DNA of 64,000 nt from an uncultured Actinomycetes bacterium (GTDB lineage: Bacteria; Actinomycetota; Thermoleophilia; RBG-16-64-13): contig CAWJDT010000001.1 of assembly GCA_963841735.1 (NCBI GenBank), forward strand, positions 1,312,001 through 1,376,000, read 5' to 3'. Each line of letters begins with the position of its first letter. Within the stretch, counting starts at the first letter, position 1. Shown in pieces: positions 43,239-48,225 of the stretch. Under the pieces are notes generated by a model that did no database searches, was not told the DNA's origin, and worked only from the letters and a program-made list of their open reading frames with translations. A program made the translations under genes and the position numbers.

Positions 43239-43661
43239 CTAGAGTTCCGTCAGCAGCTTTACGACGGTCTTCTCGTCGTCGGCCGTGTCCACCCCGATAT
43301 GCGCGACGAACTTGGTGCCCAGACCGGCAGCGGAAAAGCCGCGCATGTTGACTCCGGCATCTCCAATGGCCCCCGCAAGGGCGGCTGCGACTCCGGGCTC
43401 GTTGGGCCCCTCTACGCGAACCGAGTGCAGCCTGGAGGTGACGGCAAACCCGACTGCCGCCGCCGCCTGGATCTCGCGGTCGCCTCGGAGTGGGGTCACG
43501 AAGATGACGCCGGTGCCGGACTTCTCGGGTGCGCGCCGCACTATGACGAAGTCGAGATCCACGCCGGCGGCGTTCAGCGCCGACAGCACAAGTGCCAACG
43601 CCCCCGGCTTGTCATTCATGCTCGCCGCCCAGACGTCCTCTCTCTCCACGAGCAAGTCCAT
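43239..43661 (-). CDS. Tandem ACT-domain protein
   Basis: DKPGALA and NEPGVAA ACT motifs. Confidence 0.85.
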   Translation of the reverse strand: MDLLVEREDVWAASMNDKPGALALVLSALNAAGVDLDFVIVRRAPEKSGTGVIFVTPLRGDREIQAAAAVGFAVTSRLHSVRVEGPNEPGVAAALAGAIGDAGVNMRGFSAAGLGTKFVAHIGVDTADDEKTVVKLLTEL

Positions 43662-44120
43662 GATCACTCCTTCCCGCGTAGCCTGCATGGATTCTCAAGC
43701 CAGAGACTACCCACATCCCTCGGGCCTCATTCGCGCGGTCAGAAAGTCACGACTTCGGCCTATCCCGGCGCCTGGGATACCGGACGGCATTCGAACCCAA
43801 GGCTAGGGCCCCAGCCCGCCCGCTCCTCAGCCGTCCACTTGCGCGAGGAGGCCAAGGGCCGCTTCCCTTTGTCTTGGAGCGCGTCTCGACGAGTGTCTTG
43901 CTGGCGTTTCGGGGAGGCCGACCCTCGCACGTCATCTTCGAACGTCGCATCTCCCCGAGGCTGTAATGTCAGGCGGAAGTGGCAAGGCGTGCCGCCCCGC
44001 CCCGCTTGACTCCCCGTGGGGCGGCATATACAGATGGGATGAGAAGGCCGACCTCCCCCGGAGTACCGTGAGGTCCCCAATCAGAGTCGGGCTCGTGGGC
44101 CCAAATGAAGGAGGCCAGCC

Positions 44121-45203
44121 ATGTGCGATGCTAGCACCACCGAGCAAGCGAAGGTGACCGTGGGTCTCGATCTGAGCGACCGTTGTTGTCAGATCTGTGT
44201 GCTCGACGAAGCGGGCGAGGTGACCGAGGAGGGCCGGGTGACGACCAAGCCGGAAGCCTTGCGTCGCCGCTTCTCCGGGGCGGATCCGCTACGCATCGTG
44301 ATCGAGGCCGGCACCCACTCCCCCTGGGTTAGCCGTCTGCTTTCCGAACTTGGACACGACGTTGTCGTGGCCAATCCCCGCAAGCTCCGCTTCATCTACC
44401 AGAACGACTCGAAGTCAGACCGGGTGGACGCCGAGTACCTGGCCCGGGTCGGTCGTCTGGACCCGGAGCTGCTGGCCCCCCTCACCCATCGGAGAGCCGA
44501 GACCCAGTCCGACCTCGCGCTTGTGCGCAGTCGCAATGCCCTGGTCAGGGCTCGCACCCGTCTGATCAGTCATGCCCGCGGCTGCACGAAGTCCTTGGGC
44601 AGCCGCCTGCCCACCTGCGCGAGCGACGTCTTTGCCCAAAAGGCCGGGCCGTGTGTCCCCGAGGAGCTTGCTCCCGCCCTGGCTCCGGTCCTCACCGTCA
44701 TCCAGAACATCTCCGATGAGATCCGCGCTCTCGATCAGAAGATCGAAGACATGGCCAAGGAGCGCTACCCAGAGACCGCGCTTCTCTCCCAGGTGCCCGG
44801 CGTGGGCACGCTTACGGCCACAGTCTATGTCCTTACCGTGGAAGATCCCGAGCGCTTCCCCAAGTGCCGCTCGGTGGGCTCGTATCTCGGCCTCAGGCCC
44901 CGGCAGGCAAGCTCCGGTTCCCTGGAGCCTCAGCTGCGCATCACCAAAGCCGGGGACGAGCACCTGCGCTGGCTCCTCGTGAGCGCCGCCCACTACATCC
45001 TCGGGCCCTTCGGCCCGGACTCGGATCTCAGGCGTTGGGGTCTTGCCTTGGCCGCGCAGGGCGGCAAGCGGGGCAAGAAGCGAGCGGTAGTGGCGGTGGC
45101 CCGCAAGCTCTCGGTGCTCCTCCTGCACCTCTGGAGGACCGGTGAGGTCTACGAGCCACTGCGCAACGTCCGGCTCCGCGGCGAGACTGCGCCCACCACC
45201 TAG
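44121..45203 (+). CDS. IS110-family DEDD recombinase/transposase
   Basis: GLDLS, IEAG, KSDRVDA (DEDD); VPGVG; GLRP..SSG; AVARKL. Confidence 0.95.
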   Translation: MCDASTTEQAKVTVGLDLSDRCCQICVLDEAGEVTEEGRVTTKPEALRRRFSGADPLRIVIEAGTHSPWVSRLLSELGHDVVVANPRKLRFIYQNDSKSDRVDAEYLARVGRLDPELLAPLTHRRAETQSDLALVRSRNALVRARTRLISHARGCTKSLGSRLPTCASDVFAQKAGPCVPEELAPALAPVLTVIQNISDEIRALDQKIEDMAKERYPETALLSQVPGVGTLTATVYVLTVEDPERFPKCRSVGSYLGLRPRQASSGSLEPQLRITKAGDEHLRWLLVSAAHYILGPFGPDSDLRRWGLALAAQGGKRGKKRAVVAVARKLSVLLLHLWRTGEVYEPLRNVRLRGETAPTT

Positions 45204-45568
45204 GAGCGGTGAAGATGAGAGATGCCGACGGGAAGGATCGATAACCAAGGAAGACCGGCGGGTGAACCCATCGCAGGAGACCAGCAAAAAGACCAACCGC
45301 CCAGGGTGAAAGCGACTGCGCACACAGACTCGGCCGTACAGAACGACACCAACCCGGTGCCGTCCCCAAGGCCGCTATACAGATAGCAGCGCTTCCCCCC
45401 GGCCGGACCCCAACGTGCACCGGGTCCCGCCATAGGTTCCCGACAAAAAGTGCGAATGGAAGCGTGGCCGTGGTCTTGGCTCTTCGCGGCGGAAGAGGGA
45501 TGATAGAAACCGAGCAGAGGAGGAAGAAGCAACCCAAGAATCGCTCTTGACACCGGCCGGCTTCTCAT
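45204..45568 (+). ncRNA. Putative bridge/seek RNA region
   Basis: Contains 6-7 nt segments matching both target arms and both donor arms of this element (see findings). Confidence 0.6.
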
Positions 45569-45572
45569 GGAA

Positions 45573-45675
45573 GTCTGCATAACCCCAAGACCGCGCGAGC
45601 GTCTTGGGCCCAGAAACCGCTCGGCAGGCCGACCAGGGGGGCCGTTTTGAGATTCGCACCCGGAGTTATGCAGAC
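45573..45675. repeat. 103-bp element bounded by 11-bp inverted repeats (MITE-like or attC-like)
   Basis: GTCTGCATAAC at 45573 and GTTATGCAGAC ending at 45675. Confidence 0.5.
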
Positions 45676-45837
45676 ACCCTGGTGCTTCGTCGGTCTATTT
45701 GGGCAGACTGGATAAGCATTGTTGGGCAGACGCTCGGGACTGTGCCGAGAAACGGACCCGTGTTCATGGAACGACCCCATGAACCAGGATGGACTGGACT
45801 GATGCGTAGACACGTCAAGATGAGAGGGACTACCACG

Positions 45838-46341
45838 GTGAAACCGGCGAACGGAGAAGGACCTTGGTTCACTGAGCTGGATGAAGGTTCGCCCCTCTTC
45901 CTCGAGGCCGTCCGACGGGCCAGGGCGACCGCCCCGTCATTCATCCAGGCCTACACCGCGAAGAAGTACCCAGAGGCTGCTTTCCTCATAAAGGTCCCCT
46001 TCGACAGGATGGGCCCCGAAGGTCGCTGCAGAGTCCGGAGCGCAGACGATGCAGGAGCACTCGGCGAGGCCTACATGCATCTCTGGATGCTTGTGCACGA
46101 CGCGCTCGATGATCTTCTGTTTGCACACACCTTCGAGTTCCCAGAGGGCTTGGTCGGCCTTGACGTCGGCCAAACCTATGTGATAGGCCCAGACAGAATC
46201 GAAGACTGGATGATCAATGAGCAGGGAGTCGTGTTCGGTGCCTTCACTCTGAGGCTCCAAAGGGACGCGCTTCCCGAAGCCGAGCGGCCACGCTTTGATG
46301 CTCACACTGGCATCGTGCGCTTTTCCGACGAGCTGCCGTGA
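45838..46341 (+). CDS. DUF2314-like cassette protein
   Basis: AVRRARAT..F; HLWM; IEDWMI...G.FT; bounded by GTTGGGC (45721) and an attC. Confidence 0.7.
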   Translation: MKPANGEGPWFTELDEGSPLFLEAVRRARATAPSFIQAYTAKKYPEAAFLIKVPFDRMGPEGRCRVRSADDAGALGEAYMHLWMLVHDALDDLLFAHTFEFPEGLVGLDVGQTYVIGPDRIEDWMINEQGVVFGAFTLRLQRDALPEAERPRFDAHTGIVRFSDELP

Positions 46342-46367
46342 AGGGCTGAACTGCTCGATGCCTCGCT

Positions 46368-46428
46368 GCCCAACAAGCCGGTGCAACGGACGCCCTTCGG
46401 GCGCCGCTGACCGGCTGAGACGTTAGCC
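46368..46428 (+). repeat. attC site 1
   Basis: GCCCAAC...CGCCC-TTC-GGGCG...GTTAGCC imperfect palindrome, 61 bp. Confidence 0.85.
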
Positions 46429-46484
46429 GCACTCGTCCCAAGGTTGCATGTGTACGTGTCCGATTCGCGAGGTATCATCAAGCC

Positions 46485-46697
46485 ATGAGCATGCCTGCTA
46501 TCGATATCAACGCCATGGAGCCCGAAGAGCGTCTGCGACTCATCGGTGATCTCTGGGACTCCCTCACTGAGAGCCAGGAGGACGTCGGCCTTACGCCGGG
46601 TCAGCGCGCTGAACTCGACCGTCGCCTAGACAGACTGGAGTCTGGTAAGGCGAAGCTAGTGTCTTGGGACGAGCTCAAGGCGCGACTTGTCGGCTGA
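46485..46697 (+). CDS. Addiction-module antitoxin (TIGR02574-like)
   Basis: ERLRLIGDLWDSL...ELDRRL...SWDE. Confidence 0.88.
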   Translation: MSMPAIDINAMEPEERLRLIGDLWDSLTESQEDVGLTPGQRAELDRRLDRLESGKAKLVSWDELKARLVG

Positions 46698-47001
46698 GCC
46701 GGCTCGTGCGGTCTGGCTTCTCGATGAGGCGGAAGACGATATCGCCGCCGCGTTCGAATGGTATGAATCCAGACGTCTCGGGCTTGGTGCGGAGTTCATA
46801 CACGCAGTCGACGGGGTGCTTGTCTCGTTGCTTGACTTCCCAGAATCACGCGAGGCCGTCCACCGGAGTACTCGCCGCTGTCTCGTGGGGAGATTCCCTT
46901 TCGAGATCTTCTACCGCTTGGAGCCGGGTCTTCTGGTCGTCGTCGCGTGCATGCACGCTGCTCGCGATCCCAAGGCTGTGCTTAGGCGTATCGGCGGCTA
47001 A
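46687..47001 (+). CDS. RelE/ParE-family toxin
   Basis: EAEDDI....WYE...GLG.EF; RFPF.IFY; H.ARDP. Confidence 0.88.
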   Translation: MSAEPARAVWLLDEAEDDIAAAFEWYESRRLGLGAEFIHAVDGVLVSLLDFPESREAVHRSTRRCLVGRFPFEIFYRLEPGLLVVVACMHAARDPKAVLRRIGG

Positions 47002-47056
47002 CAAGTCGGTGCAGCAGACGCCCTTCGGGCGCGGCTGACGCGCTGAGTCGTTGGCG
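46996..47056 (+). repeat. attC site 2
   Basis: GGCTAAC...GTTGGCG, 61 bp, very similar to attC1; overlaps the toxin stop codon. Confidence 0.85.
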
Positions 47057-47074
47057 ACATCTTCGGGAGGTCAG

Positions 47075-47506
47075 ATGGAGCCGCGGATCAGCATCGTTTC
47101 GCTTGGCGTTGACGACTTGCCTCGCGCGATTCGCTTCTACCGTGATGGGTTGGGTCTGCCCACATCGGCGGCTGACGACGCGAGCATTGCGTTCTTTCAG
47201 ACTTGGGGCACGTGCTTCGCGTTGTATCCAAGAGACGGCCTCGCGGCTGACATCTCCTCCGACCTTGCGTCCGCGGCTTCACCGTTCTCGGGCGTGACGC
47301 TCGCGTACGTGGCGCGTTCCGTGCAGGAGGTCGATGACACGCTGGCGTTGGCAGAGCGTGCCGGCGGCACGATTGCCAAGCCTGCGCAGAAGGTGTTTTG
47401 GGGCGGATACAGCGGCTACTTCAGGGATCCAGATGGACACTACTGGGAGGTTGCGTACTGGGACGAGTGGGTGTTCAAGTCTGACGGAAGTCTGGTCATC
47501 GAGTAG
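47075..47506 (+). CDS. VOC/glyoxalase-family protein
   Basis: ISIVSLGV..L.RAIRFY; FWGGYSGYFRDPDGHYWEVA. Confidence 0.92.
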   Translation: MEPRISIVSLGVDDLPRAIRFYRDGLGLPTSAADDASIAFFQTWGTCFALYPRDGLAADISSDLASAASPFSGVTLAYVARSVQEVDDTLALAERAGGTIAKPAQKVFWGGYSGYFRDPDGHYWEVAYWDEWVFKSDGSLVIE

Positions 47507-47507
47507 T

Positions 47508-47686
47508 CGCTAACGAGCGCGATGCCGCGCCCAAAACAGTCCCGATGCGGCCGGGTCATCGAAGCCGACTTCGGAGCCCATTGCGTGGCGGTTGCGGTGT
47601 AGGATTGATATAGGAGCAACAGCCGACTTCCTGCGTTGTCATATATCACGGCCGACGGGCGCGGCTGACCGGCATGAACGTTGGGT
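47508..47686 (+). repeat. attC site 3 (interrupted or degenerate)
   Basis: CGCTAAC at 47508; right half CGGGCGCGGCTGACCGGC...GTTGGGT matches attC1/2. Confidence 0.6.
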
Positions 47687-47705
47687 GCAGAATGTTGGAG
47701 CGGAT

Positions 47706-48225
47706 ATGCAGATGATAACTGGAAGCTGTTTGTGCGGTCATATTGCATACGAGTACACAGGGGAGCCTGGCCCTTCAAGTTATTGCCATTGTTCGGACTG
47801 CAGGAAAGTAACAGGAACTGCCTTTATGGTAAGCGTTCGTTTTGAAGCAAGATTCTTTAGAATCACTACCGGCAATAATACTAAGAGCTATACCAAAATC
47901 GCTGACAGCGGCAATAGCATTACAAGGGACTTTTGTCCAAATTGTGGTTCTCCGATTTTCACAGCATCACCACACTGACCCGGAATATATCTGGGTAAGA
48001 GCAGGTACTTTGGACGATTCAAGCTTTATCAAGCCGGCCCATCAAAGCTGGACTGATTCAAAAGTCGAGTGGGCTGATATTCCGGACGATATAGAAAGCT
48101 TTCGAAAAGGTCGTCCACAAGACGGAGTTATCACCCAACACCGGCATCAAGACCGACCGCTATCGCGGCGGTCTATGGTATGCGTTAGGCAGGCTCGTGC
48201 GACGCTTCAATGCTCTGAGGTCTAG
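47706..48225 (+). CDS. GFA-family (Mss4-like) protein, AT-rich, frameshift near 47975
   Basis: GSCLCG..CHCSDCRK..FCPNCGS; continues as VRAGTLDD..W.D.K..W in another frame. Confidence 0.82.
48133..48190 (+). repeat. attC site 4
   Basis: ACCCAAC...GACCG.CCGC-TATC-GCGGCGGTC...GTTAGGC, 58 bp. Confidence 0.8.

Follow-up and report, generated by a model that had tools for sequence, protein, structure and literature searches.

An IS1111-type insertion sequence with predicted RNA-encoded target guides beside integron-integrase genes of an uncultured Thermoleophilia bacterium

In the IS1111 group of the IS110 family, guide RNAs called seekRNAs are encoded downstream of the transposase gene (tnp). Their match to the top strand of the target lies 5′ of their match to the bottom strand, the two matches overlap in the target, and this order is reversed relative to that of the IS110 type (Siddiquee et al., 2024; PMC11187229). 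Hallmarks of the group are subterminal inverted repeats, a long non-coding region (NCR) downstream of tnp and a GL-P----SG motif in the protein, and for ISEc11 a short seekRNA of 82 nt carrying the target matches was sufficient for transposition (PMC11187229). Durrant et al. (2024; PMC11208160) add that many IS1111 bridge RNAs carry donor-binding bases in a multiloop. Here, we describe an insertion sequence (IS) of this type in a 64,000-nucleotide stretch of DNA, hereafter the window, corresponding to positions 1,312,001 to 1,376,000 of contig CAWJDT010000001.1 (assembly GCA_963841735.1) from an uncultured Actinomycetes bacterium of the Thermoleophilia. A first-pass annotation had proposed that an IS1111-type element with an intact recombinase is present at this locus, and that four short stretches of its 3′ NCR, namely CCCATC, CAGACT, TATACAG and ATGGAAG, match the two halves of its target and its own two ends. 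The junctions, the four matches and a TTGACA hexamer near the right end are all found where it had placed them. As argued below, the element is very probably an active or recently active IS1111-type IS belonging to the RNA-guided DEDD/Ser recombinases of the IS110 family, with target guides encoded in its RNA.

The element lies between a left junction reading TATAC-AG/ATGGG (44027-44038; coordinates are those of the window) and a right junction reading ATGGA-AG/TCTG (45567-45577). As AG is present at both edges, the position of the element is ambiguous by 2 nt and its boundary could be moved 2 nt to the left. The subterminal inverted repeats ATGAGAAG (44039-44046) and CTTCTCAT (45561-45568) match perfectly over 8 bp and are located 5 nt inside each tip. 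In most relatives this repeat reaches 11 bp (GGCCTTCTCAT), and IS1111 elements are characterised by repeats of 7-17 bp set back from the termini. Non-coding DNA amounts to 370 nt 3′ of tnp versus 87 nt 5′ of it, the downstream region being likewise the longer one in IS1111 elements. The left ends of relatives have the conserved form ATGG(G/A)ATGAGAAGG, their right ends read CTTCTCATGGAAG, an AG core is found on both sides, and they have an RNA scaffold in common. In the genome to which the window belongs (2.82 Mb, 8 contigs), five near-identical copies of the IS are present, with identical junctions and all oriented alike with respect to their flanks. Their DNA differs by one synonymous single-nucleotide polymorphism and by a 1-nt indel in a C-run at 45395, just 3′ of the RNA target arm discussed below. 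Copies L002 and L004 differ by one base in the length of this run; the one-base deletion also occurs in contigs from two public sequencing runs, and may be a real variant or a homopolymer sequencing error.

The open reading frame (ORF) of the recombinase is intact, and the protein is identical in all five copies. It matches PF01548 and PF02371 with 63.9 and 67.4 bits, and the NCBIfam model NF033542 ('IS110 family RNA-guided transposase') with 217.7 bits for a cutoff of 140. Alignment to the ISCro4 transposase (9t56), which covers both domains, places D17, E62, D100, D103 and S265-G266 opposite the matching residues of that protein. Alignment to the IS621 transposase (8wt6) starts at residue 54; E62, D100, D103 and S265-G266 are matched and D17 falls outside. 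For comparison, the catalytic residues of IS621 are given as D11, E60, D102, D105 and S241-G242 by Hiraizumi et al. (2024; PMC11208158). The GL-P----S(t)G motif is found as G257-L-R-P-R-Q-A-S-S265-G266. E-values against structures of the IS110 group range from 1e-10 to 1e-11, and a tblastn search of plasmids returned distant relatives only, the best of them at 35.6% identity. The domains, the catalytic residues and the identical copies thus bear out the proposed type of element and the integrity of its recombinase. Judged by sequence-level features, the element belongs to the IS110 family and, within it, to the IS1111 group.

The target is ...TATAC-AG-TCTG..., with a single AG. All five copies share these flanks, as the first-pass annotation had expected when it suggested that flanks of other copies be compared. 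Occupied sites have AG on both sides and empty sites a single AG, which indicates a shared core dinucleotide and no target duplication. The target stretch reads TATACAGTCTG. An uninterrupted 20-mer within 3 mismatches of the target occurs in 13 of 60 other genomes of the same bacterial family, versus one match for a reversed-pattern control, and a genome of the same genus devoid of the IS contains the exact 20-mer twice, in one case 8 nt past the end of an intact integron-integrase ORF. These uninterrupted sites with a single AG, found elsewhere, set the length of the element at 1540 bp and its target as TATAC-AG-TCTG; the empty target that had been deduced from the junctions therefore exists in IS-free sister genomes. 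In the window genome itself no exact 11-mer is unoccupied, and the 15 one-mismatch 11-mers are all empty. An uninterrupted near-cognate site (C1:392020-392039, minus strand; L007) differs from the target by 2 mismatches in 20 nt. It belongs to the sole IS-free copy of the conserved module described below, and reads CATACAG for TATACAG, a change at the position that would pair with the most distal base of the left guide, plus one changed base further to the right. Either all seven pairs of the left guide are needed, or this site has simply not yet been hit.

Relatives of the element were gathered from many phyla by protein-based and motif-based searches. At least 47 elements were parsed, which collapse to 35 distinct guide pairs, that is, 36 guide families with the window. 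The alignment used for covariation contains 35 sequences, L105 being left out as its 3′ stem was mis-anchored, and the left-guide comparison has n=22 after L048, with a mis-registered left end, was dropped. In the table of right donor guides, L105, L127 and L132 are mis-anchored. L024 and L025, which lack recognisable ends, were dropped.

Each of the four short matches occurs once in the 363-nt NCR of the window element, on the + strand only. Among 5000 dinucleotide-preserving shuffles of this region, CCCATC is found in 12%, CAGACT in 6.9%, ATGGAAG in 4.1% and TATACAG in 0.16%; CAGACT and TATACAG occur together in none. When the segment 45250-45475 is folded, CAGACU and UAUACAG are located on opposite strands of a symmetric 11x11 internal loop. 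RNAalifold, applied to a MAFFT alignment, returned only the outer helix of this target arm and an invariant GCAC/GTGC stem, and the inner helix was specified by hand. In the 35-sequence alignment, the three specified helices have 92% of their cells paired, versus 21-48% when one partner is slid, and 68 double-sided changes, versus 10-21 in the slid controls; the observed covariation is reached in none of 500 shuffles. U-G pairs in the inner helix (9 sequences) are compatible with the + strand only. An RNA from the minus strand was also considered and was rejected, the U-G pairs in the helices fitting the + strand only.

The loop bases follow the DNA beside each element. For the right guide, the 13 nt that follow the outer helix were set against the reverse-complemented 8 nt on the right side of the core: on average, 6.31 of 8 positions match the element's own flank versus 3.90 for the flanks of others (n=36). 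On the left side, the guide comparison set the 10 nt preceding the 3′ strand of this helix against the 6 nt to the left of the core, giving 4.27 of 6 for cognate versus 2.78 for non-cognate flanks (n=22). In both cases permutation gives p≤1e-4, a value that here measures correspondence and not independent events. In 11 of the 22 families exactly five bases are matched beside the core, and never a sixth; the left guide therefore comprises 5 nt plus AG, as in the window (TATAC+AG). The folding and covariation that the first-pass annotation had recommended thus place both proposed target guides in a loop closed by covarying helices, and the assignments of CAGACT to the right and TATACAG to the left half of the target are both supported across families.

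It may be asked whether these matches could be coincidental, the protein recognising palindromic or hairpin DNA beside the integron-integrase gene (intI) and no RNA being involved. The target does belong to a conserved structured module, and the five occupied sites share far more than 11 bp, so that an 11-bp code and a wider context are indistinguishable from the window's own copies. Nevertheless, such an explanation has to accommodate the joint absence of the two target guides from the shuffles, the covariation of the helices around the loop, and the recurrence of matches between these loop positions and unrelated flanks, seen in 36 families and in most of 11 further relatives; in addition, RNA guidance was shown experimentally for IS1111 members (PMC11187229). 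We therefore hold coincidence to be extremely unlikely.

The further relatives are closer ones, from the same bacterial family, with 66-84% nucleotide identity and different loop bases. Most of the 11 parsed match their own flanks: the match is 10/10 for L167 and L170 and 9/10 for L165, with an additional 7-nt left match, and is only partial for L160 and L163. As far as loops and flanks go, such differing loops in close relatives amount to natural redirection. A contig of another close relative, from an RNA library (run X19), differs from the window at 45323-45324, in the loop strand of the right guide, with a nearly identical scaffold; such a two-base difference would be expected of a guide variant. 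In the window, the left guide and core are followed by AT (45383-45384), which corresponds to the first bases of the left end. AT is found here in 27 of 35 sequences, and L023, whose left end begins with GT, reads GT after the core. By analogy with IS621, it may be conjectured that these bases act as a handshake-like guide.

On the donor side, ATGGAAG lies in a conserved motif, GTGCG-N-AT-N-GAAGC. Its variable base is G in 30/30 families whose right end reads ATGGAAG and A in 4/4 whose right end reads ATAGAAG, so that 34 of 36 families agree at this base and right-end variants are tracked in 4 of 6 cases. The proposal that ATGGAAG is the left donor guide thus gains support, two other variant families being unmatched. 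Between the target arm and the GCAC hairpin lies a second conserved motif, with the sequence GGAC-CCCA-AC at 45405-45414 of the window. Of 12 families with a left end ATGGG, 11 have CCCA; it becomes TCCA in 2 of 3 ATGGA families and CTCA in 2 of 3 ATGAG families, and is matched at 3 of 4 positions in L023 and L149 and at 2 of 4 in L146. From these sequences, CCCA(A)C is the more plausible right donor guide, in which case position 1 of the left end would face an unpaired base.

The first-pass annotation had instead assigned this role to CCCATC at 45267, so that the donor guides would bracket the target guides. Although CCCATC is the exact reverse complement of G+ATGGG and is unique in the NCR, a hexamer expected in 12% of shuffles carries little information. 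Of the 23 families with a known left end, only one, the window itself, has an equivalent hexamer in the 150 nt that precede the target arm, and CCCATC falls outside the predicted closing stem P1, which is the 5′ limit of the structure conserved among relatives. A nested layout is thus very unlikely, and both CCCATC as a guide and the nesting are given up: in the order suggested here, the target loop comes first and the donor strands follow, within a three-way junction.

This junction is suggested by pairing over a longer distance. In relatives, the 30 nt immediately 5′ of the target arm pair with the ~40 nt after ATGGAAGC. The mean energy of the closing-stem duplex is -19.8 kcal/mol for cognate versus -14.0 kcal/mol for non-cognate partners (permutation p≤1e-4, with the same meaning as above), and for 11 of 36 families the best-ranked partner is the cognate one. 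Since this stem encloses both the target arm and the donor strands, the RNA would form a three-way junction with the donor strands in the junction itself, a layout in agreement with the multiloop remark for IS1111 in PMC11208160. The GCAC/GTGC stem, being invariant, is uninformative for covariation and speaks neither for nor against the donor-side hairpin. Altogether, we consider it highly likely that the element encodes, on the strand of the recombinase, a bridge RNA or seekRNA of ~200 nt (roughly 45289-45477), organised as a three-way junction with the target loop first and then the donor strands. Directly 3′ of the closing stem, a small hairpin CTCTTC...GAAGAG (45480-45497) could correspond to the 3′ terminus of the RNA or to a site of processing.

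Several results argue against this interpretation or restrict it. Regarding the target guides, the right guide of the window pairs over only 6 contiguous nt (the core plus 4, with one additional separated base), when relatives often reach 8-10. The flank match fails in L067 (3/8) and in L058 and L065 (4/8), and in L022, from the Saltatorellus ferox chromosome, the right guide matches at 4/10 although the left guide matches over 7 nt; for this last mismatch, a rearrangement after insertion or an off-target event is possible. The single-sequence fold is no more stable than those of shuffles (z = -0.98 and -1.68), and no Rfam match at E≤1 was found over 43500-46200. The families compared are mutually related, and a pattern for the donor-guide motif was used in part of their collection, which makes the sample biased, hence the meaning given above to the permutation values. 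Transcription, RNA processing, circle formation, dependence on the RNA and use of the donor strands would be as in the published relatives, from which they are extrapolated.

The donor guides are more exposed to such reservations. The right one follows the left end in 4 of 9 variant families and fails in 5, and consists of only 4 nt plus 1 with an unpaired position; the left one is mismatched in L019 and L022, that is, in 2 of the 6 variant cases. Moreover, the ends of the elements are nearly invariant, so that the evidence for donor guides is thin. It can thus be asked whether the RNA specifies the target only, the loop reading target and flanks and the protein reading the ends through the subterminal repeats; CCCA(A)C and ATGGAAG would then be protein-binding sites or structural scaffold. 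Conservation of the ends alone could explain the donor matches in this clade. In line with this, the 82-nt seekRNA of ISEc11 supported movement at 42% (PMC11187229), from which it follows that donor strands may be non-essential in IS1111 elements. In the same direction, reprogramming of ISEc11 needed changes of the donor flanks besides the target matches (PMC11187229), as would be compatible with a loop that reads target and flanks. What such a model explains less readily is the covariation with the ends: the variable base of ATGGAAG is changed in all four ATAGAAG families and kept in all 30 ATGGAAG families, and CCCA becomes TCCA or CTCA in four families with an accordingly changed left end. 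Donor-binding multiloop strands are also reported for IS1111 orthologues in PMC11208160. An RNA specifying the target alone is therefore judged unlikely, without being negligible, and the bispecific three-way-junction RNA is retained. The coordinates of all features are collected in Table 1.

Table 1. Features of the insertion sequence, of its predicted RNA and of its target, in window coordinates
Feature	Position	Strand	Basis or remark
Left target half TATAC plus core dinucleotide AG	44027..44033	+	Junctions; uninterrupted site in IS-free sister genomes
Insertion sequence, 1540 bp	44034..45573	+	5 genomic copies, junction comparison
Left end: terminal extension ATGGG, then subterminal inverted repeat ATGAGAAG(GCCG) at 44039-44050	44034..44050	+	
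Recombinase gene, 360 amino acids, DEDD (RuvC-like) and Tnp domains	44121..45203	+	PF01548, PF02371, NF033542
CCCATC, judged a chance match outside the conserved RNA	45267..45272	+	Shuffles; relatives
Predicted closing stem P1, 5′ strand AAGACCA	45289..45295	+	Pairs with 45471-45477; minimum-free-energy folds
Target-arm outer helix, 5′ strand	45310..45319	+	Pairs with 45386-45394; 96.8% of cells paired, 4 pairs with compensatory changes
Target-loop 5′ strand, predicted right target guide CAGACT (45325-45330)	45320..45330	+	Would pair with top-strand AG+TCTG
Inner stem-loop of target arm	45331..45374	+	Helix 45331-45335/45370-45374; 3 compensatory pairs, 76.6% of cells paired
Target-loop 3′ strand, predicted left target guide TATACAG (45376-45382)	45375..45385	+	Would pair with bottom strand of TATAC+AG
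Target-arm outer helix, 3′ strand	45386..45394	+	Partner of 45310-45319
Proposed right donor guide CCCA(A)C	45409..45414	+	Complementary to left-end positions 2-5 and core G
Donor-side hairpin with invariant GCAC/GTGC closing stem	45417..45453	+	Invariant in 35/35 sequences
Probable left donor guide ATGGAAG	45456..45462	+	Equals last 5 nt of right end plus core
Predicted closing stem P1, 3′ strand TGGTCTT	45471..45477	+	Duplex energies, fold
Candidate outward-facing -35 hexamer TTGACA	45548..45553	+	17 nt upstream of GAAG/AT once the ends are joined
Right end: subterminal inverted repeat CTTCTCAT, terminal GGA, core AG	45561..45573	+	
Right target half TCTG... and conserved attI-like module with attC-like hairpin TCTGCATAAC...GTTATGCAGA, ending CATTGTTGGGC	45574..45727	+	

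By analogy with the published systems, a mechanism can be proposed. The element would excise as a circle in which the ends are joined as ...ATGGA-AG-ATGGG... (...CTCATGGA-AG-ATGGGATG...). This junction would set TTGACA at 17 nt from GAAGAT, and the promoter thus formed would then drive expression of the recombinase and of the RNA. In the RNA-protein complex, the 5′ loop strand (..CAGACU) would pair with the top strand of the core and right target (AG+TCTG) and the 3′ loop strand (UAUACAG) with the bottom strand of the left target and core (TATAC+AG), while in the junction CCCA(A)C would read left-end positions 2-5 plus the core G, and AUGGAAG the right end plus the core. The complex would thereby unite the circle junction and the 11-bp target TATAC-AG-TCTG, and strand exchange would take place at the AG core without target duplication.

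The junction promoter, already suggested by the first-pass annotation, is a mixed case. Its spacing stands, and so does the -35 element, since 30 of 36 families have TTGAC within the final 45 nt of their right end, and 26 of these place it 21-22 nt from the tip. The candidate -10 GAAGAT is weak, with 3 of 6 consensus positions including positions 2 and 6. A scan of the integrated element for sigma-70-like promoters found no complete site, and two terminator-like sites were detected in it, no more than in shuffles. Expression may thus occur from the circle or by read-through from intI. In public runs, the best one holds 0.25 of the sampled words, in short contigs that are 90-99% alike and come from relatives; none of these contigs spans the element, and no circle junction or empty site is found among them. 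The stretch 45286-45561 is covered by contigs from the RNA library X19, a weak hint at best and no proof of transcription.

All copies are located beside integron-integrase genes or attI-like sequences. For three of them, the left flank is the 3′ end of an integron-integrase gene, intact in two cases and a remnant in the third; the integrase scores 484.5 bits against TIGR02249, for a cutoff of 265. Upstream of the window copy and of one other, only the last few dozen bases of intI are left. Where intI has been kept, the IS is inserted 15 bp past its stop codon. To the right of the insertion, a conserved module of ~150 bp begins with the hairpin TCTGCATAAC...GTTATGCAGA and ends with ...CATTGTT(A/G)G(A/G)C; similarity between copies stops at the module end, CATTGTTGGGC, and copies diverge beyond. 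The IS thus sits at the base of an attC-like hairpin, and the first cassette begins ~150 bp further on. Integrons exist in which the integrase gene points toward the cassettes, and we read the module as the attI side of integrons of that kind. Six such modules occur in the window genome, five of them carrying the IS.

Several further observations concern these modules and their surroundings. Integrase ends with attI-like modules are located at C1:809259-810572, C6:31559-32533, C5:151587-151748, C1:~392040, C1:~403870 and, in the window, ~44001, which makes six modules in a 2.8-Mb genome versus only two intact integron-integrase genes. The copies on C5 and at C1:81x (L002 and L003) are identical beyond the module too, which could be explained by a segmental duplication or by an assembly duplicate. 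In the window, the module is followed, over 45574-48225, by small ORFs on the same strand encoding a DUF2314 protein, an Unstab_antitox and ParE pair, a glyoxalase/bleomycin-resistance-like protein and a GFA protein. Two mutually similar hairpin sites, at ~46365-46430 and ~46995-47055, separate these ORFs and end with CGTTAGCC and CGTTGGC, respectively; together, ORFs and sites look like a cassette array. Both attC-like sites are uninterrupted, and no intact integrase is present upstream of the window IS.

Elsewhere, among 80 diverse IntI loci drawn from many phyla (L193-L272), 12 have a near-palindromic motif TTATACAG-(T/A)-CTG(T/C)ATAA within ~7-15 nt of the end of the integrase gene. This suggests that the IS exploits a conserved functional site, for example a protein-binding site or a terminator. 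A search of these 80 loci for clade members adjoining intI gave loose motif matches at three loci, none of which could be identified as an insertion at the equivalent site. Among other clade members, the guides of L157 (~1683-1856) match CCTGCAG/CCTAACACGC, whose right half resembles the end of an attC-type site, so that integron-like structures may be targets elsewhere in the clade as well. Eight families, mostly from metagenome-assembled genomes labelled Acidobacteriota (L053, L058, L077, L082, L090, L105, L117 and L149), have similar targets and right guides that are almost identical (TTAATCGCCT and variants); their insertion site is probably a sequence repeated in those genomes.

The anatomy of the element, the identity of its copies, the empty sites, the covariation of the structure and the correspondence between guides and flanks are established here. 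They offer a clear case from nature of specificity encoded by guides in the IS1111 branch, which has been studied less and has its RNA at the 3′ end and a reversed guide order, and the comparative set fixes which loop bases read which target bases, which is useful before any reprogramming. The IS is also a specialist of the side of chromosomal integrons nearest the integrase, instead of cassette attC sites, and its occupancy of five of six modules in a single 2.8-Mb genome could affect cassette expression or integron function. The integrase promoter is often stress-induced. As every perfect site is filled and the IS is co-oriented after intI, read-through from that promoter, if it takes place, could couple the IS to integron activity, an idea as tentative as the one that follows.

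More broadly, and as a tentative and rather doubtful proposition, the relatives may form an undescribed IS1111 clade of ~45 guide families, having a three-way-junction RNA with a readable code, in which the window member would be a dedicated parasite of the intI-attI spacer. With the same degree of doubt, the code of this clade would consist of a right target guide of 8-10 nt, a left one of 5 nt plus the core, a handshake-like extension of 2-3 nt copying the first bases of the left end, and donor strands located in the junction. RNAs of this clade may already have been modelled in the supplementary material of PMC11187229 and PMC11208160. The mechanism itself is published for IS1111 (PMC11187229, PMC11208160), so that the element is not a new kind of system, and the known mechanism is unchanged by the present findings.

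Among described systems, the closest are the IS1111 seekRNA elements ISEc11, ISPa11, ISKpn4 and ISPst6 (Siddiquee et al., 2024; PMC11187229). The element shares with them a DEDD recombinase with the GL-P----SG motif, a long NCR after tnp, subterminal inverted repeats, the lack of target duplication, a putative circle-junction promoter and, apparently, natural redirection through changed loop bases. It departs from named members by a low identity (28% over 78% of the length with IS5075/IS4321), by a recombinase of 360 amino acids versus the 330-350 quoted, and by a new target. This target also differs from those of ISKpn4 and ISPst6 in Table 1 of PMC13604230. The comparison with IS621 and the bridge RNA of the IS110 group refers to Durrant et al. 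(2024; PMC11208160) and Hiraizumi et al. (2024; PMC11208158). As in IS621, one RNA would be bispecific for target and donor, each DNA would be read on both strands around a 2-nt core, with left guides on the bottom and right guides on the top strand, the right donor guide would be interrupted, and the catalytic residues are the same. Unlike in IS621, the RNA is encoded at the 3′ and not at the 5′ end, the guide order is reversed, right before left, and the right guide is the longer of the two (8-10 nt among relatives, versus 5 nt plus core for the left). The donor strands would also stand in a three-way junction and not in an internal loop, the core is AG and not CT, and long subterminal repeats are present. 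Finally, the element resembles the IS1111-attC group (ISPa21, ISKpn4, ISPst6 and ISPa25; Tetu and Holmes, 2008; Post and Hall, 2009), as described in papers citing these reports, in being an integron-site specialist inserted in one orientation at one end of a hairpin-forming site. In a full-text literature search combining IS110, attI, integron and insertion sequence, no title or abstract among the papers listed reports a niche on the intI side. Whereas the IS1111-attC group is defined by insertion in cassette attC, all five copies found here lie in the module between intI and the first cassette, and none in a cassette attC.

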